64,000 nucleotides of DNA from an archaeon (GTDB lineage Archaea > Aenigmatarchaeota > Aenigmatarchaeia > GW2011-AR5): positions 2,771 to 66,770 of the forward strand of contig JANQNA010000006.1 in NCBI GenBank assembly GCA_028279825.1, in the 5' to 3' direction. The notes under the pieces were generated by a model. That model saw only the letters and a program-made list of their open reading frames with translations, made no database searches and had not been told where the DNA came from. Shown here piece by piece: positions 3,450 to 57,289 of the stretch (positions within the stretch are counted from its first letter, which is position 1; the number at the start of each line of letters is the position of its first letter). The translations under genes were made by a program, and so were the position numbers.

Positions 3450-4412
3450 ATGCTGACAGCATTGCTTTTCTTAGTGGGTATTGTTCTGATTGGGGGCGTT
3501 ATGGCCTATTTTGGGTTTAATGAAGTTCTCACGGTGATGTCATCTGCAGATATATACTATATAGTCATTGCATTGTTGCTTCAGCTGGGTATGCTGCTGC
3601 TTCTGGCTGTGAGATTCGTCCTGATTTCCAAGCGTTACAAGCGGGTTGGCTTCTGGGACGCATTCAAGATAAGCATGGCAGGCACGGCGATTAGTCTTAT
3701 AACACCAATAGCCCGTGTGGGTGGCGAACCGCTAAAAATATACCTGCTCAAGAAGAAAATCGGCGGTTCAAAGGCCTCAGCAGTTGTGGCTGTTGATACT
3801 TTATCAGAGCTTGCTTCATCATTTTTGGTTCTATTGTTTGTATTCATAGCGTTTTTCTCTGATATACCGGGTTCCATTCTTCCATCATTTCTGGTATTCT
3901 TTGTTGTTGTGGCAGTTGTACTCATTGTCATGGTAAAAATGCTGCTGAGTCCAGACCTTTTGAGAAGAATCATTAACTGGGGCAGCCAGAAAGTGTCAAA
4001 GTATACAAAGGTGGACAAAAAAGATTACGCGCTGCTGTTCTATAAAGCCTTCAGGCATTTATTGCAGGATGAGAAGGTTGTTTTCTCCGCTTTATTGGTT
4101 TCTTTCGTTGCTAAGGTGCTGGAGTTTGCCAGAATGTGGTTTGTTTTTGCTGCCCTAGGCGTATTACTTCCACTGGACGTTGTTATAATTGTGTGGGCTG
4201 TTATACTTGTGCTGTATCTTGTGCCGTGGCTGCCTGGATCATTGGGTCTTGTAGAGTTTTTCGGTGCAGGTGCGTTTGTGCTGTTTGGCATAGCGAGCGG
4301 CGTTGCTGCCGGTGGACTCATAATCGATCGTTTCATATCCTTCTGGTTTGTACTTGTCATAGGATTATTCATTGCGTCAACGTTCAAAGTGCCCAAAGAA
4401 GTCAAGAAGTAA
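3450..4412 (+). CDS. UPF0104 / lysylphosphatidylglycerol-synthase-TM-region-like (flippase-like) integral membrane protein
   Basis: About 8 TM helices. The signature ITPIARVGGEPLKIYLL matches the PxxxGGExxR motif of the LPG_synthase_TM/UPF0104 family. Confidence 0.5.
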   Translation: MLTALLFLVGIVLIGGVMAYFGFNEVLTVMSSADIYYIVIALLLQLGMLLLLAVRFVLISKRYKRVGFWDAFKISMAGTAISLITPIARVGGEPLKIYLLKKKIGGSKASAVVAVDTLSELASSFLVLLFVFIAFFSDIPGSILPSFLVFFVVVAVVLIVMVKMLLSPDLLRRIINWGSQKVSKYTKVDKKDYALLFYKAFRHLLQDEKVVFSALLVSFVAKVLEFARMWFVFAALGVLLPLDVVIIVWAVILVLYLVPWLPGSLGLVEFFGAGAFVLFGIASGVAAGGLIIDRFISFWFVLVIGLFIASTFKVPKEVKK

Positions 4413-5278: not shown

Positions 5279-5671
5279 ATGGAAAAAAGATTAACAGAAA
5301 TAAAAAATCTAAAGCCGGGTTCTTACGTGCTTATAGACGACGTGCCTTACAAAGTAGATAAAGTGCAAACGTCCAAGGCCGGCAAGCACGGTGCAGCCAA
5401 GGCAAGATTGTTTGCAAATGGTGTTTTTACGGATGCAAAGAAGATAATTGTCAAGCCGGGCGATACAAGAATGGATGTACCTGTTATAGAGAAGAAAACT
5501 GCGCAGATACTATCCTTCTCGGGTGACACAGCCCAGCTGATGGATATGACCAGCTATGAGACTTATGAAGTAAAGGTCCCCGAAGAACTCAAGGGCCAGC
5601 TGGTAGAAGGGGACGAAGTGGTTACCTGGGAATTCGGCACGTTCAGAATGATCAAGAACAAGAAAGTCTGA
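5279..5671 (+). CDS. aIF5A: Translation initiation factor 5A (aIF5A)
   Basis: The hypusination loop TSKAGKHGAAKAR is present. Length 130 aa. SH3-like N-domain plus OB C-domain pattern. Confidence 0.9.
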   Translation: MEKRLTEIKNLKPGSYVLIDDVPYKVDKVQTSKAGKHGAAKARLFANGVFTDAKKIIVKPGDTRMDVPVIEKKTAQILSFSGDTAQLMDMTSYETYEVKVPEELKGQLVEGDEVVTWEFGTFRMIKNKKV

Positions 5672-5720
5672 CCGAGTTCCAAAGAAAACTATTGCTGGTC
5701 GGAAAAAGAACTATTACGTC

Positions 5721-6314
5721 TTGGGGAAACTATTTTATTGGCCAGACACTAATTCTACTATGGTTAGGCGTAAGTATACAAAGAAGAACAGGGAACTTTT
5801 GGAACTCGTGAAGTTTCTTGTCAAGTTCAACCTTTTTGCGATCCCTCTTTACATCATACTTTTTACAGGCTGGACGTTTGTCCAGCTACAACAGCTAACG
5901 CTGGATATTACATATCAGATTCTACTTTTAACAGGTGCTGAACCTGTATTGAATGATTTTTTGATATCTATACCGATAAAGAACGGCAACTGGGCTGCTG
6001 TTATCAACTGGGACTGCACCGGCTGGAAGAGTATGCTGGCTTTCTTTGCACTGGTCATGTCCACTCCGTTCACGATGAAGAAAAGAGCACTTGGATTGCT
6101 GTTAATTCCCCTGATTTATGCGATAAACCTGGTCAGGATATTCTTTATGTTCCTGTATGTCAGAACATTTGACCTGGCACACTATGAATTAGTGCATTCG
6201 GTGGTGTGGAGCTGGGGGTTAATATTGACTATACTTCTGTTATGGCTGGTATGGATGAGAACAAACGGTTTCGAGTCTATGGAAAAAACAATATATAGTG
6301 CCTTACATAAGTAA
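5721..6314 (+). CDS. Short exosortase/archaeosortase-family protein (putative archaeosortase)
   Basis: Polytopic membrane protein. Cys is in INWDCTGWKS (the CxG active-site motif of exosortase/archaeosortase). AINLVRIFF matches the conserved ANxxRI motif of the family. Confidence 0.5.
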   Translation: MGKLFYWPDTNSTMVRRKYTKKNRELLELVKFLVKFNLFAIPLYIILFTGWTFVQLQQLTLDITYQILLLTGAEPVLNDFLISIPIKNGNWAAVINWDCTGWKSMLAFFALVMSTPFTMKKRALGLLLIPLIYAINLVRIFFMFLYVRTFDLAHYELVHSVVWSWGLILTILLLWLVWMRTNGFESMEKTIYSALHK

Positions 6315-13138: not shown

Positions 13139-13702
13139 ATGAGTTACTTGGATATTGAAAAGCGTTACAAACGCGGTCCGCAGATAATAACAAGAAAAGA
13201 TGCGGCTGTGATAGTTTCGGAGACAGGGCTGTGTCCGCAATGGAAATGTCTGGATCTTGGCGGAGGTTCCGGTTTTCTATCATTGTTTCTGGCAAATCTT
13301 GTGCCTAAAGGATCTGTGACTACTTATGAGAAAAAGAAGGAGCATGCGGAGATAATAAAGAATAATGTGAAGCTTTCGGGATTCAAGAACGTGAAGGTAA
13401 TCAACAAACCGGCTGAACGCTTCGCTGGTAAAGGATTTGATTTAGTAACTGCGGACATGAAAGGCACAGAGAAATTGGTTAAGAAGATACATACTGCTCT
13501 AAAACTGGGCGGATACTTTGCTGTTTATTCACCGCATATAGAACAACAGATGGCCTGCAAGAAAACAATGGAAAAAGTATTCAAAAAGATCAGGACTATT
13601 GAGACTATACAGCGTGAATGGAAAATAGACACGCGCGGCTTCACTCATCCTGTGCCGTCACAGGTTGTTCACACAGGCTACGTTACTATAGCGAGGAAGT
13701 AA
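13139..13702 (+). CDS. SAM-dependent methyltransferase, TrmI/GCD14-like (tRNA m1A methyltransferase family), short form
   Basis: GPQIITRKDAAVIV matches the TrmI tQIiYpkD motif. The SAM motif I is LDLGGGSGFLSLFLA. FDLVTADM resembles the TrmI DAVFLDLP region. Confidence 0.5.
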   Translation: MSYLDIEKRYKRGPQIITRKDAAVIVSETGLCPQWKCLDLGGGSGFLSLFLANLVPKGSVTTYEKKKEHAEIIKNNVKLSGFKNVKVINKPAERFAGKGFDLVTADMKGTEKLVKKIHTALKLGGYFAVYSPHIEQQMACKKTMEKVFKKIRTIETIQREWKIDTRGFTHPVPSQVVHTGYVTIARK

Positions 13703-13729: not shown

Positions 13730-13879
13730 TGGGTCCGAGGAGATTTGAACTCCTGTCACGGGCTTTTCCGCGAACCTTTCCTTTTGATTGAACTTTTGGA
13801 AAAGTTCACCCGAAGCCCGGATCATAGCCGTTAGACGTCCGAAGGACGTCAGTCTCTGACCAAGCTAGACTACGGACCC
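13730..13879 (-). tRNA. tRNA gene of about 150 nt with one or two introns. The inferred mature anticodon is CGG (Pro), which is uncertain.
   Basis: On the minus strand the acceptor stem GGGUCCG/CGGACCC is perfect with discriminator A. The T-arm is AGGAG-UUCAAAU-CUCCU. The D-arm is GUCU...AGAC. The anticodon stem is CGGGC/GCCCG with loop UUCGGG|A interrupted by a 44-nt insert that contains an 8-bp hairpin. A second insert of about 32 nt (hairpin GACGUC-CUUCG-GACGUC) lies between the D-arm and the anticodon stem. Confidence 0.6.
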
Positions 13880-14148
13880 GGTTCATTAAAACATTTGTTA
13901 CATTCCCAGTATTCGATTTTTTTCTGTTTTCCTGTCCATCTGACTAAGTCAAACTTTTTTCTTCCGATTTTTGTTGTGCCAACTTTTTTGTATTTTCCCG
14001 GGCCTATTGGAGATTCAAATTTTCCGAAGTAGTTACCATTACTATACTTGTTACCGTCTAATGTGATATTTATGTATTTACCACAATCCAGACACCTTCG
14101 TTTTATTCTTCTTTTCATTTTCATCCTTAGTAATTGAGAATCATTCAA
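13870..14148 (-). CDS. Small basic zinc-ribbon protein (hypothetical). Its last codons overlap the tRNA 5' end.
   Basis: 92 aa with CxxC...CxxC (CLDCG...CNKC) and a Lys/Arg-rich sequence. The overlap with the tRNA makes the exact extent doubtful. Confidence 0.3.
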   Translation of the reverse strand: MNDSQLLRMKMKRRIKRRCLDCGKYINITLDGNKYSNGNYFGKFESPIGPGKYKKVGTTKIGRKKFDLVRWTGKQKKIEYWECNKCFNEPGP

Positions 14149-26000: not shown

Positions 26001-26186
26001 ATGTCATTGAAAGAGAGAGTTTTATCTGCTATAGGCAAGGAGGCCACGCCTATCTACGTTGTGGCTAAAAAAGCCGGTACTTGCGTCACTACGACGTCAA
26101 AATACTGTTATATTCTTCAGGCTGAACACAAAATTGTCATGACCAGTTTTGGTAATATGAAGTTAGTCAGGAGGAAGGGCAAATGA
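26001..26186 (+). CDS. Small (61 aa) putative winged-helix protein translationally coupled to the giant gene
   Basis: MSLKERVLSAIGKEATPIYVVAKKAGTCVTTTSKYCYIL...MKLVRRKGK. Its size and layout resemble the 59-aa HTH at 23465. Its stop overlaps the start of the 3614-aa gene. Confidence 0.35.
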   Translation: MSLKERVLSAIGKEATPIYVVAKKAGTCVTTTSKYCYILQAEHKIVMTSFGNMKLVRRKGK

Positions 26187-29100
26187 CAAGATTCCTACCA
26201 GCAATCTTGATTGCTAGTTTATTGCTACTTATCACACCTCCTGTATTTGCAGTGCCTAACATAATAGATTTCCAAGGACGGTTGTTAGATAACAACAGGA
26301 ACCCGCAAGGCGGACAGTTCAACATGACGTTTTCTATTTTTAACGAGTCGACGTCCGGTTCTCTTCTATGGCAGGAAAACAAGCTCGTAAACGTCTCAAA
26401 TGGTTTGTTCACAGTGTTGCTTGGCGACACCATCGGGTTAAACCTAACGTTCAATGAGGACTATTATGTTGAGGTTATTGCAAACGGGGAAACATTTGCG
26501 CCACGCTATCGCGTGTCCACAGTTCCTTACGCTTACAGGTCACAGTACGCTTCAGCTGATAATACAAGTGAACCGTCTTTCATCTTTGAAAGATTCAGGA
26601 ACCAGACCAGTAATCTTACAGAATGGCAGAACGAGACGGGATTTACAATGGCATCTGTTGACAAATACGGCAGGTTTGTAGGCGACGGATCACTGTTGAC
26701 GGGCATAATTGCCGCTATCAATGATTCAACGACGGATCTGCCCGCTACAAACATAACACCCGGAACGTTTGGTATTCATTACCAGAACGGAAGCTATGCT
26801 TTTCCTGTTAACCTGAATGTTACACACAATCTGACGCTAGGCAATACAACCAATACGCTGAATATATACCGTGATGATGTTGGTAATTTTGTATTCTTCC
26901 CCAACAACAAGTCTGTTATTTTTCCCGGCAGATATGCTTCAGGCTTGCCTGCACTGAGTGCTGTAGCAATAGGTGCCAATGCAAGTGTTGCTACGACCCA
27001 TTCAATTGCTATTGGTACCGGTGCCACAGTCAGTAACGTTCTTCCGAGCTGTATAGTCATAGGAAGCGGTGCCGTTTGTACTGAGAACTACCAACTACTT
27101 TTGGGAGGTCCTGACACCTATATCAGAGAGGCATATATTGGCGGCGGGCCAACACGATTGAATCCTAATACAGTTACATTGCAAACTTCGGGTGGTATAG
27201 GCGGTTCCAACTATGGTGGTACTATTGTGCTGGCAGGCGGTAAAGCAACCGGAACAGGTGTGCCTGGTAGTGTTGTGTTCAAAGTATCGAACGGTACGGC
27301 ACCTTCTTCAACTTTGCAGGACCTGGTGGAAGTCGGCCGGTTCAACGGCTCAACAAGGTACTTTGGTATTGGCACGGCTGCAACTATAGCGCGTCTACAT
27401 GTTGCAGGTACAGAAAACCTGAATAATCTTTCTTTGAACGTTAATGATACTTTGTATGTGAACGGTTCAAGAGTCGGCATAATGACACCAAACCCTACGC
27501 ATGAACTGCATGTTGTTGGTGACGTGAATGTCACGGGAACAACATATCTGAGCACACTTTCAGTTACAAATCTAGACATACCAAACAACCTGTCCGTGGG
27601 TCGTAACTTCTCTGTCGGACCAAATACATTGTTTGTAGATCATTCAACAGCAAGAGTCGGTATTGGCACGGCTACGCCTGCAGAGGAACTGCATGTTATA
27701 GGTGACATTAATGTTACAGGTAATTATGCTCCTATAAATGTGGATGTAGTAAGAAGTGCTGTTAGTGCCGGTACATATCTGGACTTTGGATCCAATGTCA
27801 TTGACGTTTACGCGTCTGGTGGACTACAGATAAATACTGGAAATATCGAGTTCTATTCTGGTACTCGCGTACCTTTATCAATAACACCTGGAAGTGCTGA
27901 TGGTGTTCCATCAACCATATCAAGTGGTTACGATCAAACAGGCTGGTATCATCCATTACACTATAGATCTGGTGTTCTGGACGGTGCAACAGCCATAGCA
28001 CACATAATTAACACTACAGGCAATCTAACTACAGAAGGTGCAAAATTGGTTTCCGTACAAAATAACGGTACGGAGAAGTTCTTCATAGACAAAGACGGGG
28101 ATACATGGTTCAATGGATACCTAAACGTTACGGGTGACGTCAACACGACAGGTAATGTTTGTTTATCAGATGGAACGTGTTTGAGTGATTTAGGAGCGGC
28201 GGCCGGCGGCTGGACGGATGACGGAGATGTTGTGAGACTGACGACAGTGGCCGACATGGTTGGTATCGGCACGACGAATCCTTTGGCTAAATTGAACATA
28301 CAAGGTGTAAATGATACAACAGGATTGTCTTTGAATGTTAACAATACTTTGTATGTTAACGGAACGAATGTCGGTATCGGAACTGGTAATCCACAGAGAC
28401 CTATACATGCTACTGAAAATGTTGATGGTACTACAGGAGCTTGGTTTTTGAATCCTAGTACAGGAACGTCTGCATTGTCTGCAGTTCTTGTGGGAGATTC
28501 TACTGCTGGTGGCAATTATGGATATTTGGGTCACTTTGGAGAAAATTATGCAGATGCCGGGTTAATTGTTGCCAATCGTACAATATTGGTTGGATCAGAT
28601 ACTGCAGGACTTGTAATAGTCTCAAATGCAGCTTCGATGATCTTTGCAACTGGTGGCACTGCTGCATCAAATGAAAGAATGAGAATAACAGCAAATGGGG
28701 ATATAGGTATTGGAACAACAAATCCTTCAGATAAGCTTCACGTAAACGGGTTTATACAGACGGAAGTTGTAGATTGGACTCTAAAGAAAGAGTTTACCGG
28801 TGCCAATGATACTGTCAGAGATCTGGAAGTGTACAATGGTAAACTGTATGCCGGTATGGGTACAGATTTAGAAGAGGGAGATTTGTTTGTGTTTAACGGC
28901 ACGGACTGGGCGCTTGAGTATGATTTTGGCGGTGATTATGCAAGGGTTGAAGCAATGGAAGTCTACGAAAACAAACTTTACGTGGGTCTTGGAAACGATT
29001 CACTTACGCAGGGTGGATTAGCTGATATTTATTTCTATAATGGCACGCACTGGGTTTTGTCTACGGATTTAGGTGCTGAATATGAAAGCGTGTGGTCGCT

Positions 29101-32100
29101 GCAGGTTTATAATGGAAAACTTTATGCAGGTACAGGAACCACAGACGGTGACGGTGACATCTGGGAGTTTGACGGATCAACCTGGTCACTTTCATACAAC
29201 CTTACAGGTTATCAATACGCCTATCCTATGGCTACATACAATGGTAAGTTGTATGTTGGAATGGGCTATGGTGCGGATGATGGTGATGTCTACTCGTTTG
29301 ACGGATCAACCTGGTCACTTGCTTATGACTTTGGAGCTCAATATGAGACAATCTATTCTCTGGGCGTGCATGACGGCAAACTGTATGCCGGTACTGGTTA
29401 CAGCGGCGGTGACGCAGCGATATATGTGTACGATGGGTCTTCCTGGAAATTGTCCCAGTCACTTTCTCCGTATAATGGGGTATACTCTCTAAGGAGTTAC
29501 AACGGAAGAATGTATGCCGGTCTTGGACAGGACGCAGGTGAGGGTGACGTATACGTCCTGATAGACGGCAACTGGACACAAGCTGCTGATCTTGGTGCAG
29601 CATATGAACAGGCATGGGATATGGAAGTTTACAATGGAAAGCTTTATGTTGGAACAGGCAGTGGTGCCGACGATGCTGATATTTTTGCTTACTCAGAGCG
29701 TTTAGAGTCCCAATTAACGGAGGATCTTGGCGAAAGATTTGAAAAGTTTGTGACAACTTCACAACACTTTACTGATAATGTGTCTATACTGGGCATCCTG
29801 AATGTTACAGGTAACACCTACCTGAGTAATCTTACGATAGAGGGCATTGCCATGGCAAATGGCGACATGACTGTGTCCGGCAATCTTTCTGTGTTGAAGA
29901 ATTTTTCTGTCGGTCCTAACAACCTGTTTGTTGATAATTCAACAGGAAGGGTTGGCATAGGAACCGCTACACCGTCTTCTGCTTTGGAGGTTTCAGGCAA
30001 TATAACGATTACACAAGACGCATTTTTCATTGGCAATCGTGCACAGGCAACAGGACAGGATTCAATAGCAATAGGAAACATTGTCAATGCAACTGGTTTG
30101 CAATCGATAGCAATTGGAAAAGGTGCCAATTCAAGCAATGACAGAACAATAGCAATTGGAGTAAATTCAAAAGCTGCCGGACAACGGGCATTAGCAATAG
30201 GCTGGAATAGTGAAGTATCCGGTGATTATGGTACTGCTCTGGGAACTGATTCATTTGTCAATACTGATGGCACAGCAATTGGTCTTGGATCACAGGCTAC
30301 GAGTGGTAGCGGAGTTGCAGTTGGAAGATCAACGTATGCCGGTAATTCTGCTACTGCACTTGGAAGAGCAGCCAACGCAAGCGGTAGTTATTCTGTGGCT
30401 ATTGGTTACACTGCAAATACAACTACGGATGCTTCTGAGTCTATAGCCATAGGCCTGAAATCAATGGCCGATGCTTCATATGCTGTGGTTGTGGGTTCCA
30501 GGGCAAATGCAACCTCGAATAATGCTATTGCAATTGGTTACAAATCTAACTCTAGCAATACAGATACAATTGCTATAGGTGAAAATGCAAGGTCGACAGG
30601 CGTACAGTCTATAGCTATAGGCAGTGATGCACAAGCGACAGATACCGGGGCAATTTCTATAGGTGATGATACTGAAACAAGTGGTGACGGAAGTATAGCA
30701 ATAGGTGATAACGCATGGACTAACACAAATATTGCCGATGCGATAGCAATAGGAAGAAATTCAAACGTATCAACCAGATTTGCAATCGCTATAGGCGGTG
30801 GGTCATACGCAGGTCCACAAGCTTCAATAGCTTTGGGTTACGGTGCCTCTGCCTCGGTAATAAATTCAGTTGCCGTTGGAGAAGGTGCATTAGCTACGGG
30901 ATCCGCAAGCAGTGGAACTGCCATAGGAACCGATTCGATTGTTACCGGTGCATCTTCATTTGCAGCCGGTGCCAGTGCACAGGCAGGTACACGCGGAATA
31001 GCAATAGGAAATTTGGCAAACGCTTCGAGTAGCACTAACATGATTGCTATCGGATACATGTCAAAAACTAACCAACCAGATGCGATTGCATTTGGTCATT
31101 TGGCAAATGCATTTAATGACAGAGCAATAGCAATAGGAATGACGGCAAATGCAACCAATTCTGATGTAATTGCAATAGGTTCATATACAAATGCAAGTGG
31201 TCAGGATTCGATAAGTATTGGTCAGGATGCACAGGCAAGTAATACCGACGCAATGGCAATGGGCAGACAAGCACATGCAAATGATACCGATTCAATTGCA
31301 TTGGGTAGAGGTGCAGTTGTGTATGAAGCACAGGCCATAGCAATAGGAACAAGTGCTTTTGTTGATGACTGGGGAACAGGCGAGGGAGGTCTTGCCATTG
31401 GTTACAATGCAAGAGATTACGGTGGCGGCGGCGTTGCGATAGGTCATGATGCATTTATTGGTGAAACAGATTCACAGTCAATTGCAATAGGTAAATCTTC
31501 TAATGCAACCGGGTTGTACTCTCTGGCTATCGGCGCTAGTTCACTTTCGACAAATCAGCTATCTGTTGCTGTTGGATATAACTCTTTGACTCATGGTAAC
31601 AGCGCGACTGCCTATGGTGATTCTGCTTCAGCTGCAGCAGAAGGATTTGCAGCTGGTGCCTCTGCAGATGCTTTTGGTGGTCAAAGCGTTGCAGTGGGAC
31701 GATCTTCTAACTCCTCAGGTCAATTTTCCACTGCTGTTGGATATCAGGCAAGAGCATGGAATAGCAGAGGAATAACAATAGGGCAGGGTGCTAATTCGTA
31801 CGGAGACTCTGGTATTGCAATAGGTAATGTGGCCAATTCAACTAACGGATATTCGATAGCAATCGGAAGAGATTCTGAGGCACTGGCAGAGAGTGCAATA
31901 GCAATCGGGGGTGGTTCTGGCAACGGAGCAAGGGCAACTGATTTGGATGCAATTGCTATGGGACGAAACAGTGAGGCATCACAGGACAACGCAATTGCTA
32001 TAGGTGAGAATGCTAATGCAAGTGATCAGGACACAATAGCTATAGGCCAATATGCAAGGGCATCACAGGCAAATGCAATTGCTATAGGCGAGAATGCCAA

Positions 32101-35100
32101 TGCCACTACAAATGCAGTGGCAATAGGATTTGATGCAATAGCTACTGATCTTGGTGCGATATCCATAGGCGACGATGCTTATACAACCGGTGACGGTAGC
32201 ATAGCAATAGGTGACGGTGCCTGGACTGAAACGGGTATTGCCGATGCGATAGCCATAGGCGACGGTTCAAATGTATCTACAAGGTTTGGTATTTCAATTG
32301 GCAGCGGGTCATTAGCAGTTGCACAAGCTTCAATAGCATTGGGATATACCGCCGAGGCGGAGAACACTAATACTATTGTTATAGGGAACGGCGCAGCCGC
32401 GAGGGGAACGTCTACAAGCGGTATTGCAGTTGGTATTGATTCGTTAGTTACTGGTGCAAGTGGAATTGCAATGGGAGATCGTTCAAATGCCGGTCGCTAT
32501 GCGGTGGCTATAGGACTATTGGCTAACTCTACCGGTGCAAACAGCGCAATTGCGGTAGGATATAGCTCAAAGGCTGATGATCCGGATGCAGTGGCAATCG
32601 GACACAATTCAAATGCACTACAAGACAGAGCAATAGCAATAGGAATGACAGCCAATGCAACCGCTGGTGATTCAATAGCAATTGGCTCTTATACAAATGC
32701 CACGAATTCCGGTTCCGTGGCCCTTGGCCGTGATGCCCAGACCACAGCAGACAACCAGTTAGTAATTGGCAGCCCAAGCTATAATTTGAATACATTGATA
32801 CATGGTTCATTGAACGTCACGGGTGATGTGAATGTTACTAGTGATTATGATTTTTGTATTGACGGCGGTAATTGTCTTAGCAATTTTGCTGACGCTGGAA
32901 ATGTAACAAGCAATGGCTCAGCTGGCTACATACCTGTGTTCACGAACGCTACCAATATCGGCAACAGTATAATGACTGAAGTTCAGGGTGCTATATCGAT
33001 AGACGGCAACCTGAGCATGCCTGGTGCATTCTATATCGGGAACGGTGCGGCTGCCATAGGTAGTGATGCACTGGCTGTCGGTAATAGTGCAACATCTGAA
33101 AATACTTCTACAATAGCAATTGGCGAACTTGCAAACGCGAGCGGTTTGTATTCTACAGCTATAGGCTACAATGCAAGAGCTACACAGAGTGCTGCATTGG
33201 CAATAGGTTCGCCTTATCCATCCGGACAAACCAGAGCCACAGGTACTTATGCAATAGCGATAGGAAACGCACCCGAGGCCCCTGACACCAGTTCAATTGC
33301 TATAGGTACCAGCGCAAACGCAACTGGTACTTACACTGTTGCGATAGGACATAGTGCACAAACGATGGGAGGCAGTCTTGACAGGGCTGTTGCGATTGGG
33401 TATGATACATACGCAGAAGGTTCTGGTGCACTGGCACTTGGATATGAGGCAAGATCAAATGTTGGATATGGGATTGCAATGGGTATGCGTAGTGTTGCAA
33501 ATGGTGCAGGAACCGCAATTGGCTGGAATGCTGATGCTGGTGGAGCTTCATCTGTAGCACTTGGTGGATATGTCCCTAATGCAAGTGCAAATGATGCTAT
33601 AGCAATAGGCTCTTATGTTAATGCAAGCGCTGTTGATACAATTGCAATGGGTCATTTTGCAAGGGCAACACAAACCAATGCAATTGCAATTGGTGAGGAA
33701 GCAAATGCAGCTGGTACTCAGGATATTGCAATTGGTTATCAGGCTGAGAGTCTGGCTAATTATGGTGTTTCAATAGGTTACAATGCTTCTGTGGCTAATA
33801 GCGGTGTTGCTTATGGTACCAGTGCTACGGCTGCCGGCGCCAGTGACACAGGCCTTGGAAGAGCGACAATGGCTGCCGGTGGTAATTCTGTTGCTGTAGG
33901 CTTCCAGGCACAGTCAATTGGAGGAAATTCCGTATCTATTGGCTACAACGCTGACGCAAATGGAACTGATTCAATAATGTTGGGCAGAAGTGCAAGTGCA
34001 ACAGGTGATTATGCTGTTGGAATGGGTGCGATTGCAACTGCAACTTCTGATTATGGCATAGCCTTGGGATATGATGCAAATTCAAGCGGTCTGGATGCAA
34101 TAGCCATAGGTCAAGGTACTGTGGCGTTCCTGGGAAATGCAATAGCCATAGGCAAGGATGCCAATGCAAACAATTCAAATGCTCTTGCGATTATGGTTGA
34201 TGCTGACGCGACTGCTGCTGATACAATTGCTATAGGTCAAAATTCAAAGTCATTAGATAGCTATTCTATATCAATAGGAAATAATGCTAAATCTTTGAAC
34301 CAGAACTCAATAACGATGGGACGTAATGCATTTTCAAGTGGCGGCTCTTCATTGTCAATAGGCAATGCTGCTAATGCCTCTGGTGGATATGGTATTGCAA
34401 TTGGAACGCTTGCAAATGCTTCTCATGATGATAGCGTATGTATTGGATTTAACTGCCAGACAACAGCAAACAATCAATTCATGGTTGGGGCTGGCACGGA
34501 CCCATTGAGTTTGAACGTGACAGGTGATATAAATGTAACGGCCGGTTATGATGTTTGCATTGATGGAGGAAGCTGTTTGAGCACGGGCGGCGGCAGTGGA
34601 AACACAAGCGGTACCGGAGCAGCTGGTTACATACCTCAATGGCAGGACCATGACACTTTGAATAATTCAATCATGTTCCAGGAAGGAACTTACATAGGCA
34701 TAAACACCACAACTCCTGGGTCACCATTGCATGTTGTCCAGGAGGGATTGGACGACATACTTACAATAGGTGCTTACGTAAACACGTATACATGGAACAA
34801 TCTTGTCTTCGAAAGGAGTGGAACCAGTTATGCTTCACCTTCCCAGGTATCCAACGGGGCTAACCTGGCGAGAATTCTATTCAAAGGTTATGACGGTTCG
34901 AGCTATGACAATGCTGCTGCTATTTATGTGCAGGTTGATGGTGCTACAAGTACCAACGACATGCCTGGAAAGTTTGTGTTCTATACTTCAAGGGACGGAA
35001 CAAACTCGATACAACCCAGGATGGTGCTTGATAATATGGGAAGACTTGGTCTGGGTAATGTTAGTGAATATGCTACAAACTTCGACTCCAACTTCACCGC

Positions 35101-37027
35101 AATGCTGCAAATAAACGGTACGAATCCCCAAAATAATCTGTCTTTGGATATTAACGAGATTCTGTACGTGAATTCTTCTTCCGGCTGGGTTGGTATTGGA
35201 GTGAGTGATCCTGGTCGTGGAGATGGTGACGATCCACAATTAACAACTGCAGGTCTTCATATAAAGAACCCTGTTTCTGGAAATGAATCAGCCATAGTCT
35301 TAGAGACCATTAACAGTTCGTGGAAGATACGTAATCTTGACAGGTGGGGACGCTTTTCAATTTCACAATTCTTCCCTGATGGAACCAGCGTAGCACCGTT
35401 TAAGATCTTCAACGGCACAAGTCATAATCAGTTTGTTATACAAGAAAACGGCACCGGTATCGGGACCAACAATCCTAAGGCCTGGCTACACGTTGACGGC
35501 ACAGATCTATACAATAATATTTCCCTGAACGTTAACGACACTCTGTATGTGAATGCATCTGCTTCAAGGGTTGGCATTGGAACAGCGAGCCCTGCTACTA
35601 TGCTGGATGTCAGATCTTCCAGCTCATCGGTAAACCCCGGTATAACCAGTACTAACGATGCCGGTGTGGCTTCTTACTTCTATACTGCCCGTTCCGGTCA
35701 TGCATGGTCCGGGAAGACTGTAATACAGAACAGCGGATCAAGTGATGTGTTTTTCAGTGGCAGCGGAAATGTTGGGGTGGGTGCACAAACTACAAATGCA
35801 AAACTTCATGTCAATGGAACATATTCTACGAGTGGATTGTCCCTGAACGTTAATGACACTTTGTATGTGAACAACTCAAGAGTTGGTATTGGAACCAGCA
35901 GTCCGGGTAATTTGTTCCACGTGAGTGCCGGTCCTTCCGGATCAATAACAAGTTTAGAAGTTTCAGATGATGATGGTACAGATCCGTATAATCTTAATCT
36001 TTACACTGATACTACATATCAAAGAATAATTATGCGTGGTCTTACCGGCACTCAACATCAGGCACTTGTGTTTTCAGATGGTTATGGATATAATACAATG
36101 TTTGGAATAAGTTCCAGCACTGATTCTGGAAGTACCTGGCTTCCTAAGTTTGTCTTACAACAACGCGGACTTGTAGGTATTGGAGCAACAAATCCAGAGG
36201 CATTGTTCCACGTAAATGGAACTGACCCATTCAATGGAAATCTTTCTCTAAATATCAACAACACTTTGTATGTGAATGCTTCCGGAAGAGTTGGTATTGG
36301 AACTTCAGATCCTGATGAAGAATTTGTGATTAGTACTTCATCGGTAAGCCCTGCAATAGAAATTGCAACAACAAGCACAACGAACAATCAAGAAAAAGGA
36401 AAAATAATTTTCTCATCAAATGACAATGATCTAGCGGAGATAAGGGCATACAGAGTAAACAGTACTAATGGTGAGCTTAGGTTTAAGACCAGACAGGCAG
36501 GTACGTTAACCACACACATGGTCATAAATTCTTCCGGGAATGTGGGAATTGGAACTTTGAATCCTTCAATGGAATTGCATGTGAACGGTTCAGTGAACAT
36601 AACTGAAAATATTTTCTATGGCGGCAACCTGACTGGTTATGGGACTGACGTGGCTGAATATGTGAATGGTATAGGTGTTGAGCCTGGTGATGTTGTAATA
36701 ATTTCAGAGTATAGTGACGTAACTGTGGAGAAGACTGACGTAGCTTATGATACAAGAGCAGCCGGAATAGTCTCAACTGCACCTGGTCACACACTTGGTC
36801 TCGGAGAAGGTAACGTCAAGCTTGCGCTGGCAGGCAGAGTGCCTGTCAAGGTAACTACGGAAAACGGATCAATTAATCGTGGTGATTTGTTGACTACTTC
36901 CAGCACACCTGGACATGCTATGAGATGTGAGTCACGCTCTGCATGTACAGGATCAATAATTGGCAAGGCAATGGAGAACTTTTATGGTGATAACGGAGTC
37001 ATAACAGCATTGGTGGTACTAGGGTGA
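26183..37027 (+). CDS. Giant (3614 aa) secreted surface protein: signal peptide, repeated stalk modules, beta-propeller-like repeat block, about 1500-aa array of Hep_Hag (YadA-head-like) repeats, conserved C-terminal domain
   Basis: Uninterrupted 10.8-kb ORF. Signal peptide MTRFLPAILIASLLLLITPPVFA. At least 8 copies of the LSLNVNDTLYVNGSRVGIGTxxPxxxLHVxG module. Eleven 44-aa repeats YNGKLYAGTG...GDVYxFDGSxW (about 28820-29700). From about 30040 to 34480 there are continuous 14-15-aa AIAIGxxAxAxGxxS repeats. CIDGGxCLS disulfide-loop motifs occur. The C-terminal approx 130 aa run GTDVAEYVNG...GDLLTTSSTPGHAMR. N-x-S/T sequons are extremely dense. Confidence 0.85.
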   Translation: MTRFLPAILIASLLLLITPPVFAVPNIIDFQGRLLDNNRNPQGGQFNMTFSIFNESTSGSLLWQENKLVNVSNGLFTVLLGDTIGLNLTFNEDYYVEVIANGETFAPRYRVSTVPYAYRSQYASADNTSEPSFIFERFRNQTSNLTEWQNETGFTMASVDKYGRFVGDGSLLTGIIAAINDSTTDLPATNITPGTFGIHYQNGSYAFPVNLNVTHNLTLGNTTNTLNIYRDDVGNFVFFPNNKSVIFPGRYASGLPALSAVAIGANASVATTHSIAIGTGATVSNVLPSCIVIGSGAVCTENYQLLLGGPDTYIREAYIGGGPTRLNPNTVTLQTSGGIGGSNYGGTIVLAGGKATGTGVPGSVVFKVSNGTAPSSTLQDLVEVGRFNGSTRYFGIGTAATIARLHVAGTENLNNLSLNVNDTLYVNGSRVGIMTPNPTHELHVVGDVNVTGTTYLSTLSVTNLDIPNNLSVGRNFSVGPNTLFVDHSTARVGIGTATPAEELHVIGDINVTGNYAPINVDVVRSAVSAGTYLDFGSNVIDVYASGGLQINTGNIEFYSGTRVPLSITPGSADGVPSTISSGYDQTGWYHPLHYRSGVLDGATAIAHIINTTGNLTTEGAKLVSVQNNGTEKFFIDKDGDTWFNGYLNVTGDVNTTGNVCLSDGTCLSDLGAAAGGWTDDGDVVRLTTVADMVGIGTTNPLAKLNIQGVNDTTGLSLNVNNTLYVNGTNVGIGTGNPQRPIHATENVDGTTGAWFLNPSTGTSALSAVLVGDSTAGGNYGYLGHFGENYADAGLIVANRTILVGSDTAGLVIVSNAASMIFATGGTAASNERMRITANGDIGIGTTNPSDKLHVNGFIQTEVVDWTLKKEFTGANDTVRDLEVYNGKLYAGMGTDLEEGDLFVFNGTDWALEYDFGGDYARVEAMEVYENKLYVGLGNDSLTQGGLADIYFYNGTHWVLSTDLGAEYESVWSLQVYNGKLYAGTGTTDGDGDIWEFDGSTWSLSYNLTGYQYAYPMATYNGKLYVGMGYGADDGDVYSFDGSTWSLAYDFGAQYETIYSLGVHDGKLYAGTGYSGGDAAIYVYDGSSWKLSQSLSPYNGVYSLRSYNGRMYAGLGQDAGEGDVYVLIDGNWTQAADLGAAYEQAWDMEVYNGKLYVGTGSGADDADIFAYSERLESQLTEDLGERFEKFVTTSQHFTDNVSILGILNVTGNTYLSNLTIEGIAMANGDMTVSGNLSVLKNFSVGPNNLFVDNSTGRVGIGTATPSSALEVSGNITITQDAFFIGNRAQATGQDSIAIGNIVNATGLQSIAIGKGANSSNDRTIAIGVNSKAAGQRALAIGWNSEVSGDYGTALGTDSFVNTDGTAIGLGSQATSGSGVAVGRSTYAGNSATALGRAANASGSYSVAIGYTANTTTDASESIAIGLKSMADASYAVVVGSRANATSNNAIAIGYKSNSSNTDTIAIGENARSTGVQSIAIGSDAQATDTGAISIGDDTETSGDGSIAIGDNAWTNTNIADAIAIGRNSNVSTRFAIAIGGGSYAGPQASIALGYGASASVINSVAVGEGALATGSASSGTAIGTDSIVTGASSFAAGASAQAGTRGIAIGNLANASSSTNMIAIGYMSKTNQPDAIAFGHLANAFNDRAIAIGMTANATNSDVIAIGSYTNASGQDSISIGQDAQASNTDAMAMGRQAHANDTDSIALGRGAVVYEAQAIAIGTSAFVDDWGTGEGGLAIGYNARDYGGGGVAIGHDAFIGETDSQSIAIGKSSNATGLYSLAIGASSLSTNQLSVAVGYNSLTHGNSATAYGDSASAAAEGFAAGASADAFGGQSVAVGRSSNSSGQFSTAVGYQARAWNSRGITIGQGANSYGDSGIAIGNVANSTNGYSIAIGRDSEALAESAIAIGGGSGNGARATDLDAIAMGRNSEASQDNAIAIGENANASDQDTIAIGQYARASQANAIAIGENANATTNAVAIGFDAIATDLGAISIGDDAYTTGDGSIAIGDGAWTETGIADAIAIGDGSNVSTRFGISIGSGSLAVAQASIALGYTAEAENTNTIVIGNGAAARGTSTSGIAVGIDSLVTGASGIAMGDRSNAGRYAVAIGLLANSTGANSAIAVGYSSKADDPDAVAIGHNSNALQDRAIAIGMTANATAGDSIAIGSYTNATNSGSVALGRDAQTTADNQLVIGSPSYNLNTLIHGSLNVTGDVNVTSDYDFCIDGGNCLSNFADAGNVTSNGSAGYIPVFTNATNIGNSIMTEVQGAISIDGNLSMPGAFYIGNGAAAIGSDALAVGNSATSENTSTIAIGELANASGLYSTAIGYNARATQSAALAIGSPYPSGQTRATGTYAIAIGNAPEAPDTSSIAIGTSANATGTYTVAIGHSAQTMGGSLDRAVAIGYDTYAEGSGALALGYEARSNVGYGIAMGMRSVANGAGTAIGWNADAGGASSVALGGYVPNASANDAIAIGSYVNASAVDTIAMGHFARATQTNAIAIGEEANAAGTQDIAIGYQAESLANYGVSIGYNASVANSGVAYGTSATAAGASDTGLGRATMAAGGNSVAVGFQAQSIGGNSVSIGYNADANGTDSIMLGRSASATGDYAVGMGAIATATSDYGIALGYDANSSGLDAIAIGQGTVAFLGNAIAIGKDANANNSNALAIMVDADATAADTIAIGQNSKSLDSYSISIGNNAKSLNQNSITMGRNAFSSGGSSLSIGNAANASGGYGIAIGTLANASHDDSVCIGFNCQTTANNQFMVGAGTDPLSLNVTGDINVTAGYDVCIDGGSCLSTGGGSGNTSGTGAAGYIPQWQDHDTLNNSIMFQEGTYIGINTTTPGSPLHVVQEGLDDILTIGAYVNTYTWNNLVFERSGTSYASPSQVSNGANLARILFKGYDGSSYDNAAAIYVQVDGATSTNDMPGKFVFYTSRDGTNSIQPRMVLDNMGRLGLGNVSEYATNFDSNFTAMLQINGTNPQNNLSLDINEILYVNSSSGWVGIGVSDPGRGDGDDPQLTTAGLHIKNPVSGNESAIVLETINSSWKIRNLDRWGRFSISQFFPDGTSVAPFKIFNGTSHNQFVIQENGTGIGTNNPKAWLHVDGTDLYNNISLNVNDTLYVNASASRVGIGTASPATMLDVRSSSSSVNPGITSTNDAGVASYFYTARSGHAWSGKTVIQNSGSSDVFFSGSGNVGVGAQTTNAKLHVNGTYSTSGLSLNVNDTLYVNNSRVGIGTSSPGNLFHVSAGPSGSITSLEVSDDDGTDPYNLNLYTDTTYQRIIMRGLTGTQHQALVFSDGYGYNTMFGISSSTDSGSTWLPKFVLQQRGLVGIGATNPEALFHVNGTDPFNGNLSLNINNTLYVNASGRVGIGTSDPDEEFVISTSSVSPAIEIATTSTTNNQEKGKIIFSSNDNDLAEIRAYRVNSTNGELRFKTRQAGTLTTHMVINSSGNVGIGTLNPSMELHVNGSVNITENIFYGGNLTGYGTDVAEYVNGIGVEPGDVVIISEYSDVTVEKTDVAYDTRAAGIVSTAPGHTLGLGEGNVKLALAGRVPVKVTTENGSINRGDLLTTSSTPGHAMRCESRSACTGSIIGKAMENFYGDNGVITALVVLG
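30040..34480 (+). repeat. Codon-level tandem repeat array (about 100 units of 42-45 bp) encoding Hep_Hag-like AIAIG motifs inside the giant gene
   Basis: Recurrent gcaatagg(n)/attgcaatagg strings encode SIAIGxxAxAxGxxSIAIG. The repeats are in-frame and degenerate, so this is a coding array and not a CRISPR array. Confidence 0.8.
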
Positions 37028-57013: not shown

Positions 57014-57289
57014 ATGGAGGCTAGTTCGGCTGGTTAGCGGGCAGCTGTAGCCATCAATCCGCTATAGATGGGATCGAAGCTTGAGGGCGATGCCTGTTGT
57101 GAAGGGAGCCCAATGCTTGAGCGTCGAAGCTCAGTCCTGTGGGATCATGTTTATGGCGAATCGGGTCAGGTCCGGAAGGAAGCAGCCCTAACTCATGGGC
57201 GTGGTGCTCTCAGGGTCGCTGAGTGGAGCAATGGTGTTGGACAAACTCTCTTTGTTTCAGACATCCACCTTGGGCGTGCCTCCACTAAT
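57014..57289 (+). ncRNA. Signal recognition particle RNA (7S / SRP RNA)
   Basis: A GC-rich island in AT-rich DNA. It contains the universally conserved helix-8 sequence GGGUCAGGUCCGGAAGGAAGCAGCC (57163-57187). The 5' GGAGGC and 3' GCCUCC termini can pair. It is followed by a T6 tract. The 77-aa track ORF 57068-57301 lies inside it and is rejected. Confidence 0.8.

Follow-up and report, generated by a model that had tools for sequence, protein, structure and literature searches.

A tRNA-Pro(CGG) gene of Aenigmatarchaeota, probably interrupted by a relaxed-motif intron at position 22/23 and a near-strict canonical intron at position 37/38

The window, which is the whole 64,000-nucleotide stretch of DNA that was analysed, carries at 13730..13879 on its minus strand what is, with a probability of roughly 0.85, a functional tRNA-Pro(CGG) gene of a member of the Aenigmatarchaeota (DPANN), in which exons of 24, 15, and 35 nt are separated by a non-canonical intron at tRNA position 22/23 and a canonical intron at position 37/38. 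The gene, the geometry of its splicing motifs, and a covarying cloverleaf product are apparent in the sequences compared; the exon/intron boundaries are predicted by comparative inference. The 150-nt precursor body, in which the CCA end is not encoded, was numbered 1-150, so that nt i of the pre-tRNA has the window coordinate 13880-i, and all features of the gene described below lie on the minus strand. Exon 1 (nt 1-24, 13856..13879) would contribute the acceptor 5′ strand GGGUCCG, U8 and A9, the D-stem 5′ strand GUCU, the D-loop AGCUUGGUCA, and G22; its limits are based on a comparison of eight sequences and on a gap-free alignment with intron-less orthologues. Exon 2 (nt 57-71, 13809..13823) would supply G23, A24, and U25 as the remainder of the D-stem 3′ strand, followed by C26, the anticodon-stem strand CGGGC, and U32, U33, C34, G35, G36, and G37. 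Exon 3 (nt 116-150, 13730..13764) would begin with A38 and GCCCG, and continue through the variable region UGAC, the T-arm AGGAG UUCAAAU CUCCU, and CGGACCC to the discriminator A73.

A reading of the window made from its sequence alone (the sequence-only reading) had placed a tRNA gene with two inserts at exactly these coordinates, and the family search bore this out. The Rfam model RF00005 matched the unspliced gene end to end on the minus strand with 35.0 bits, compared with a gathering cut-off of 29 bits (E = 0.0014), with the model interrupted by a large insert in the D region and another in the anticodon loop. The sequence-only reading was likewise correct on the acceptor stem GGGUCCG/CGGACCC, on the T-arm, and on the anticodon arm (CGGGC/GCCCG with U33, the CGG anticodon, and G37). 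The assignment of the whole gene is based on the RF00005 score together with ARAGORN, which identified the doubly spliced window sequence as a 74-nt tRNA-Pro(cgg); on the window as it stands, default ARAGORN returned zero tRNA calls across the whole 64 kb. The 150-nt sequence folds better than every dinucleotide shuffle (z = -5.5), and the cloverleaf is fully paired in 13 orthologues with compensatory changes (see below); a chance origin of the tRNA gene is therefore rejected.

The surroundings of the gene are archaeal in type. Neighbouring genes encode GGGP synthase, G1P dehydrogenase, UPP synthase, the helicase Hel308, and a TrmI-type tRNA m1A methyltransferase. The only Rfam match in the 64 kb besides the tRNA is an archaeal SRP RNA at 57014-57285, and the adjacent TrmI-like gene has its best-matching named relatives in metagenome-assembled genomes (MAGs) of Candidatus Aenigmatarchaeota, on which grounds the organism is taken to be archaeal. 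The window was also matched by a 107-kb contig assembled from run SRR20820740.

The canonical intron (intron 2; UGAACUUUUCCAAAAGUUCAAUCAAAAGGAAAGGUUCGCGGAAA) occupies nt 72-115 (13808..13765), precisely the 44-nt insert after position 37 that had been described from the sequence alone. It was delimited by enumeration of bulge-helix-bulge (BHB) motifs, using a geometry in which each strand carries a 4-nt half of the central helix (H) followed by a 3-nt bulge that is cut after its second base; a homologous intron in L010 is 91% identical. The anticodon stem, formed by CGGGC (nt 61-65) and GCCCG (nt 117-121), encloses UUCGGG, the 44-nt intron, and a single A. In the 37/38 motif, UUCG (nt 66-69; positions 32-35) pairs with CGGA (nt 110-113) at all four positions of H, the bulges on the opposite strands are GG|U and AA|A, and the 5-bp anticodon stem serves as the outer helix. 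Splicing at these sites yields a 7-nt anticodon loop, UUCGGGA. The 10-bp inner helix, GAACUUUUCC/GGAAAGGUUC, is shifted by one extra base in the 3′ strand, G109, making the 5′ bulge formally a 3x1 loop; because of this displacement, the intron-2 motif is best described as near-strict rather than as a textbook-strict hBHBh′ structure. The 8-bp hairpin originally drawn in this intron (GAACUUUU/AAAAGUUC) would leave a loop of 2 nt and can thus have 7 bp at most, and the pairing relevant to splicing is that of the inner helix.

Placement of the other intron required homologous genes. Syntenic loci were fetched from 80 genomes by means of the adjacent TrmI protein, and were supplemented by one pattern scan of metagenome contigs. 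Eight distinct sequences were found to carry a D-side intron in the same place (the window, L006 (identical to L082), L010, L011, L031, L081 (nearly identical to L084), L083, and L085 (identical to L086)), and the intron is absent in five orthologous tRNA-Pro genes (L003, L005 (GW2011_AR5), L007, L008, and L030). The tRNA-Pro gene of L020, which has a longer and different D-side insert with a BHB that could not be resolved by hand, was left out of the comparison. All five intron-less orthologues have the D-arm GUCU AGYUUGGUA GGAU. When all junction pairs were scanned on five sequences, four combinations reached 19-20 of 20 H pairs. Three of these were rejected, one because it removes part of the anticodon stem and two because they remove D-stem or D-loop bases; the pair x=24/y=57 (...GGUCAG| + |GAUC...) alone gave 4/4 H pairs in all five scanned sequences together with a usable tRNA. 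The intron was accordingly placed at 22/23, since only this junction pair yields a fully paired H and two 3-nt bulges in all eight intron-bearing sequences as well as a D-arm that matches the intron-less orthologues. The rejected pair x=25/y=62, which loses part of the anticodon stem, owes its 4/4 H pairs to a fortuitous exon-exon pairing, GUCA/UGAU. The junctions suggested by the Rfam D-stem GUCU/UGAU (GGU|AUGAU and GGUCA|UGAU) were rejected as well, as they leave H unpaired and give a product with a U13.U22 mismatch unlike the orthologues.

Intron 1 (AGACUGACGUCCUUCGGACGUCUAACGGCUAU) accordingly is predicted to span the 32 nt from nt 25 to nt 56 (13855..13824; coordinates by blastn), with the junction context ...GGUCAG | intron | GAUC... 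inside the 3′ strand of the D-stem. The 5′ strand of its H helix is exonic, GGUC at nt 19-22 (13858..13861), corresponding to G18, G19, U20, and C20a, and is followed by the bulge A23 G24 | A25 that holds the putative 5′ splice site. The 3′ strand is intronic, GGCU at nt 51-54 (13826..13829), followed by the bulge A55 U56 | G57 with the putative 3′ splice site. Across the eight sequences, H (G19 G20 U21 Y22 with G51 R52 Y53 Y54; GGUY/GRYY) is paired 4/4 in every case (32/32 cells), and sliding the 3′ partners by 1-3 columns cuts pairing to 17-58%. Each of the four substitutions in H affects one strand only, since the D-loop constrains the exon half, and strict covariation is absent from this helix. 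The bulges have the consensus A G | W and W U | G, represented in the window by AG|A and AU|G.

The inner and outer helices of this motif differ in how well they are formed. A 7-bp hairpin, GACGUCC UUC GGACGUC (nt 30-46, 13834..13850), was identified by folding, where 6 bp had been counted before, and together with the pair G26-C50, from which it is separated by a symmetric 3x3 internal loop in the window, makes up the inner helix h′. The G26-C50 pair, the first of the inner helix, is kept in seven of the eight intron-bearing sequences. The intron-1 interiors are unrelated in sequence, yet all eight form a hairpin of 5-10 bp that begins at the first or second position past the bulge; most are broken by a mismatch, a one-base bulge, or an internal loop, the last being asymmetric in L085. 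On the outer side, the strict form has an exon-exon helix of at least 2 bp, and at 22/23 there is 1 bp only, the in-register pair U18-A58 by nucleotide number (U17a-A24), which is present in 8/8 sequences and is followed by U.U. Because the outer helix is this single U-A pair, the 22/23 motif is classed as relaxed and HBh′-like, not strict. Strict hBHBh′ enumeration on the window alone recovered the canonical intron and gave no sensible D-side motif; the 22/23 motif emerged with relaxed helices and homologues. The overall picture drawn from the sequence alone, a two-intron archaeal tRNA with one canonical intron and one non-canonical intron of relaxed motif, thus holds, whereas its details of the non-canonical intron do not.

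The principal detail concerns the D-arm. The sequence-only reading gave the second insert the correct size, about 32 nt, and located it between positions 25/26 and the anticodon stem, a placement contradicted by the comparison with orthologues. In that arrangement the D-arm is intact (GUCU / AGCUUGGUCAG / AGAC), and an intron of 31-32 nt lies between 25/26 or 26/27 and the anticodon stem. GUCU/AGAC is a perfect Watson-Crick 4-bp D-stem in the window taken alone, and ARAGORN accepts both the 25/26 and 26/27 spliced versions as a 75-nt tRNA-Pro(cgg). The proposed partner AGAC (nt 25-28), however, corresponds to the first four bases of the intron and is present in the window genome only; the equivalents in the seven other distinct sequences are UGAU, UGCA, AAAA, UGAU, UGAA, UGCC, and AGAA, most of which are unable to pair with GUCU. 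Such a stem would also differ from the GGAU that is invariant in 13/13 orthologues, and the model makes the conserved ...GGCUAUGAU segment purely intronic. A BHB had been expected at both splice junctions, and its absence was named in advance as grounds for giving a junction up. The motif is present at 37/38, and at 25/26 or 26/27 H has 0-2 of 4 pairs and no BHB can be drawn. An intact D-arm with the intron downstream of it is therefore considered very unlikely. The two models predict different molecules: placement at 22/23 would give a mature tRNA containing ...GGUCAGGAUCC..., compared with ...CAGAGAC(U/C)CGGGC... under the 25/26 or 26/27 model.

Under the 22/23 placement, the spliced D-arm reads GUCU AGCUUGGUCA GGAU C, its 3′ strand being composed of G22 from exon 1 and G23, A24, and U25 from exon 2. 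In an alignment with the five intron-less genes, the eight spliced sequences run through the junction without a gap, and all 13 have the same D-stem, GUCU/GGAU. The cloverleaf is paired in 273/273 cells over the 13 orthologues, with nine pairs (38 cells) changed on both sides, a result reached by 0/500 shuffles. The product has stems of 7/4/5/5 bp, U8, A14, G18 and G19, U33, a purine at 37, and the T-loop UUCRAAU, together with the covariation expected of a tRNA. The sole systematic difference between the two groups of genes is an extra pyrimidine, 20a, present in 8/8 intron-bearing and 0/5 intron-less genes, and this pyrimidine completes the exon half of H as its fourth nucleotide. In L081, which has the 22/23 intron only, removal of that intron alone gives a perfect 74-nt tRNA-Pro(UGG).

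The same comparison bears on whether the gene is functional at all. Standard tools miss these genes, default ARAGORN in general and Rfam at the orthologous loci (a scan of the 13 loci gave no independent tRNA call at E ≤ 0.1), as might be expected of a decaying pseudogene or of a tRNA from which the D-side insert is never removed. The exons, however, are 77-85% identical to those of the orthologues, with the differences concentrated at compensating stem positions, and this conservation with compensatory stem changes extends over 13 genomes. Intron interiors diverge, identity to homologues being 56-75% for the D-side intron and 39% to 91% for the canonical intron, and the bases of the splicing motifs are conserved. 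A 32-nt insert left in a D-stem strand would, moreover, block formation of the D-arm and the elbow. Decay or retention of the insert is thus judged highly improbable, and a functional, doubly spliced tRNA-Pro(CGG) remains the preferred reading.

An intron search with ARAGORN (-i) on the unspliced sequence, which addressed the possibility of a single long intron raised by the sequence-only reading, reported a 91-nt tRNA-Arg(tcg) with a 59-nt intron, in which the hairpin at nt 30-46 is taken as the anticodon arm. For this model to hold, the anticodon stem has to be mismatched and a long extra arm accepted. The loop of the hairpin measures 3 nt in the window and 3-6 nt in homologues, its sequence is unrelated between them, and the hairpin is missing altogether from the five intron-less orthologues, whereas the CGGGC-UUCGGG...A-GCCCG arm is conserved and covarying in 13/13. 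The single-intron tRNA-Arg(tcg) is scarcely credible on these grounds and is regarded as refuted by the comparative data, in favour of the tRNA-Pro(CGG) with two introns.

Folding energetics gave a less direct view of the precursor. In ViennaRNA calculations, enforcing the D-side motif costs 3.9 kcal/mol over the minimum free energy (MFE) structure, and its H pairs have p = 0.018; the canonical 37/38 motif lies 5.3 kcal/mol above the MFE, with p < 0.005. Because even the undisputed canonical motif is disfavoured, thermodynamic folding was rejected as an arbiter between splicing motifs, for which it appears poorly suited, and the energies constitute weak evidence either way. In the MFE conformer (p about 0.67), the intronic GGCU can pair instead with A14, G15, C16, and U17, and this helix is paired in 31/32 cells of the eight sequences; in two of these C16-G is replaced by U16-A, the one compensatory pair. 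The helix may accordingly represent another splicing register, in which the 3′ splice site U56|G57 is kept and the 5′ cut falls after G18, giving a 69-nt tRNA, or a non-productive or regulatory fold of the precursor. A cut after G18, however, deletes G19, U20, C20a, A21, and G22, leaving a D-stem of 3 bp with a 7-nt loop from which G19 is missing, unlike the intron-less orthologues; in this register the inner helix is also displaced, with h′ = 0 in all five sequences of five. Neither version is at all likely to replace the 22/23 splicing register. Since its use as a splicing register would produce a crippled 69-nt molecule, the A14-U17/GGCU helix was read as a probable competing precursor fold.

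Self-splicing group I or group II introns have a ribozyme core of more than 200 nt and an Rfam match, and neither was found here: the inserts are 32 and 44 nt long, and only a tRNA was matched at the site, even at E ≤ 1. A split or permuted tRNA gene was ruled out because all three exons lie in collinear order at one contiguous 150-nt locus. A blastn search of both introns against the window for additional copies returned short chance matches only.

By analogy with established archaeal tRNA processing, a precursor of about 150 nt would be transcribed, with its ends trimmed by RNase P and RNase Z. The endonuclease EndA is predicted to recognise two BHB motifs and to cut after the second base of each 3-nt bulge, at four bulges in all, leaving 2′,3′-cyclic phosphate and 5′-OH ends. 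In the intron-1 motif, the D-loop nucleotides G18, G19, U20, and C20a would act as the exon half of H by pairing with GGCU near the 3′ end of the intron, and the intron hairpin would provide the inner helix. An RtcB-type ligase would then join the exons of 24, 15, and 35 nt, and would probably circularise the 32-nt and 44-nt introns. The predicted junctions of the mature molecule are ...UUGGUCAG|GAUCCGGGC... for intron 1 and ...CUUCGGG|AGCCCG... for intron 2. CCA would be added post-transcriptionally, as it is not encoded (the gene ends in ...CCCA followed by UUC), and the mature tRNA-Pro(CGG) would be about 77 nt long.

The relaxed motif at 22/23 should need an EndA of broadened specificity, an expectation consistent with the requirement for a relaxed-specificity endonuclease reported for relaxed motifs (PMC5829648). 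The broad-specificity types of EndA are (αβ)2, ε2, and, in DPANN, the L3-loop α4 enzymes (PMC5829648). No EndA was detected by Pfam among 20 ORFs of the window, or by tblastn of the window and 87 loci with the M. jannaschii EndA as query, a sequence that was validated against PDB 1a79 (E = 8e-111).

Both multi-intron tRNAs and introns at 22/23 have precedents in Archaea, DPANN included, to which the window gene would add one more case. Non-canonical introns are known at 20/21, 22/23, 25/26, 59/60, and other positions, with up to three per gene, mainly in Crenarchaeota (PMC4090602, PMC4033280, PMC8450103), and 22/23 is itself a documented site (PMC4090602). Multi-intron tRNA genes with non-canonical BHB introns occur in Thermoproteales, for example in Pyrobaculum and Thermofilum (Marck & Grosjean 2003 and Sugahara et al. 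2008, as reviewed in PMC4090602 and PMC4033280). As in those genes, the introns considered here are short and of the protein-spliced kind, with a 4-bp helix between two 3-nt bulges, a canonical and a non-canonical intron are combined in one gene, and among relatives as many as three introns occur, the known maximum. The host, in contrast, is a DPANN archaeon (Aenigmatarchaeota) rather than a crenarchaeon, and the exon half of H consists of the conserved D-loop nucleotides G18, G19, and U20 plus the extra pyrimidine 20a.

A second parallel is the pre-tRNA-Glu(UUC) of Methanopyrus kandleri, in which a relaxed HBh′ intron in the D-loop is combined with a canonical one (Kaneta et al. 2018, PMC5829648); efficient cutting of the former requires an EndA of broadened specificity (PMC5829648). 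Both precursors have two introns, a relaxed one in the D-arm region and another at 37/38. They differ in isoacceptor, in intron position, and in organism, and in the present gene both 3-nt bulges can be drawn and the outer helix alone is deficient. Among DPANN archaea, disrupted tRNA genes have been described in ARMAN-1 and ARMAN-2, which have an ε2 EndA, split tRNAs in Nanoarchaeum, and EndAs of the L3-loop α4 type (PMC3239211, PMC5829648); in this group, disruption of tRNA genes is reported to be elevated and the prediction of tRNA sets incomplete (PMC5829648). The present gene fits this pattern of DPANN genomes, in which non-canonical and multiple introns are raised in number and some tRNAs escape standard prediction. 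The Aenigmatarchaeota lie outside the tRNA-gene surveys of PMC3239211 and PMC5829648, where the phylum name appears once only, in spelling out the DPANN acronym; in the literature consulted on archaeal tRNA introns, they are mentioned by name only.

The splicing mechanism proposed is not new, and the value of the finding is modest and lies chiefly in annotation. Default ARAGORN misses the window gene and each of the 13 orthologous genes, the general Rfam tRNA model misses most of them, and DPANN MAGs would therefore look as though they had no tRNA-Pro(CGG) unless archaeal intron-aware prediction is used. Incomplete DPANN tRNA sets have been attributed to missed genes of this kind (Kaneta et al., PMC5829648). 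The gene would also add the Aenigmatarchaeota to the lineages that have multi-intron tRNAs with relaxed splicing motifs, and leads to the prediction of a broad-specificity EndA in this phylum. In addition, the closely related intron-plus and intron-minus alleles offer material for the study of intron gain or loss.

It is possible, at somewhat less than even odds, that tRNA-Pro introns in this clade of Aenigmatarchaeota are actively mobile, in which case the genes compared would be snapshots of intron gain in DPANN. Among Thermoproteales, introns have been described as transposing from one tRNA site to another (Fujishima et al. 2010, summarised in PMC4090602). The parallel in the present set lies in L030, not in the window, where one intron sequence family is found at both 37/38 and 59/60 of tRNA-Pro; this case is unlike the Thermoproteales transposition in that both copies are in the same tRNA gene and both target loops share UUCR as the exon half of H. 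Mobility, if true, would point to homology-guided duplication of introns within a single tRNA gene, and would extend the transposition known from Thermoproteales to DPANN and suggest a rule for the choice of target.

Mobility would fit several observations, one being that every intron-bearing gene has the extra pyrimidine 20a by which the H helix is completed. The likeness between 37/38 and 59/60 introns, an incidental observation, is another: the 59/60 (T-loop) intron of L030 and the 37/38 intron of the window agree at about 93-97% of some 30 nt. The T-loop sequence UUCA resembles UUCG of the anticodon loop, the exon half of H at that site. The L006 intron has a 15-nt match in L005, which was dismissed as chance, as it lies inside the Hel308 coding region. 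Also in keeping with mobility, L006 and L005 have near-identical tRNA bodies, the former with and the latter without the 22/23 intron, and in L006 a copy of the hairpin of its own D-side intron is nested within its own canonical intron.

The tRNA-Pro(CGG) gene of locus L030 (positions 3690-3870, minus strand; contig JACPJW010000001.1 of an Aenigmatarchaeota metagenome-assembled genome) lacks the D-side intron, and its T-loop is interrupted at position 59/60 by a 46-nt intron, UUGAACUUUUCCGAAAAGUUCAAUCAAAAGGGAAAGUUCAUGAAAA. The splicing motif of this intron is a strict hBHBh′, in which the central helix H is formed by UUCA and UGAA, the two bulges are AA|U and AA|U, and the T-stem serves as the outer helix. 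Across approximately 30 nt, the canonical 37/38 intron of the window tRNA-Pro gene and the L030 59/60 intron were found to be about 93-97% identical. The UUCA of the L030 T-loop resembles the UUCG of the anticodon loop, and this mimicry suggests that the intron was duplicated between the anticodon loop and the T-loop.

An intron at 59/60 is also present in a tRNA-Pro(UGG) gene carrying three introns, found at L085 (4987-5190, plus strand) and, in identical form, at L086 (3560-3765, minus strand). The introns are 33 nt at 22/23, 48 nt at 37/38, and 43 nt at 59/60, and the inner helices of the 37/38 and 59/60 motifs are in register or almost so. Three is the largest number of introns known in a single archaeal tRNA gene.

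A further resemblance between introns was observed within one gene, the tRNA-Pro of L006 (4571-4750, minus strand; an identical gene is present in L082), whose canonical intron is 76 nt long. This intron holds a near-copy of the hairpin of the same gene's 22/23 intron (GUGAAUGACGCCUUUUGGCGUCCGUCGG vs. GUGAUUGGCGCCUUCGGCGUCCGUCGG); at the same spot, the close relative L005 (GW2011_AR5) has a short loop only. The tRNA bodies of L005 and L006 are the same except for U20a, the extra pyrimidine of the D-loop, and the D-side intron is missing from L005. The L006 copy may represent a nested or duplicated intron module. The D-region insert of the tRNA-Pro(CGG) gene at L020 (3813-3995, minus strand) is longer (about 44 nt) and unrelated in sequence. 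GAAU, the 3′ strand of the D-stem, is present both before and after this insert, for which no BHB motif could be drawn by hand.

The 5′ end of the window tRNA-Pro gene is overlapped by 10 nt by a small minus-strand ORF (13870-14148; 84-92 aa), whose UAG stop codon corresponds to tRNA nucleotides 8-10. The ORF has a CxxC...CxxC zinc-ribbon-like pattern, gave no match in a Pfam search, and is conserved in L019 at 61% identity. Co-transcription of the tRNA with this ORF is possible, because the sequence preceding the tRNA gene shows no obvious TATA-like element at the customary spacing. On the other side, a convergent gene for a TrmI/Gcd14-type tRNA (adenine-57/58-N1) methyltransferase (13139-13702, plus strand) ends only 27 nt from the tRNA 3′ end. 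In several loci of relatives, tRNA-Pro lies within approximately 1-2 kb of a TrmI-type gene, a loose association.

Approximately 1.2 kb away from the tRNA-Pro gene of L010, a full-length match to the archaeal RNase P RNA model (5311-5741, plus strand; E=3e-12) scored 53.7 bits, under the 84-bit cut-off; this match probably represents an RNase P RNA of divergent DPANN type. The window itself encodes an archaeal SRP RNA (57014-57285, plus strand; RF01857, 127 bits), from which about 40 nt of the consensus are missing in mid-model. It also contains a very long ORF of 3614 aa (26183-37027, plus strand), followed downstream on the same strand by large ORFs of 602, 1005, 628, 495, and 1359 aa.
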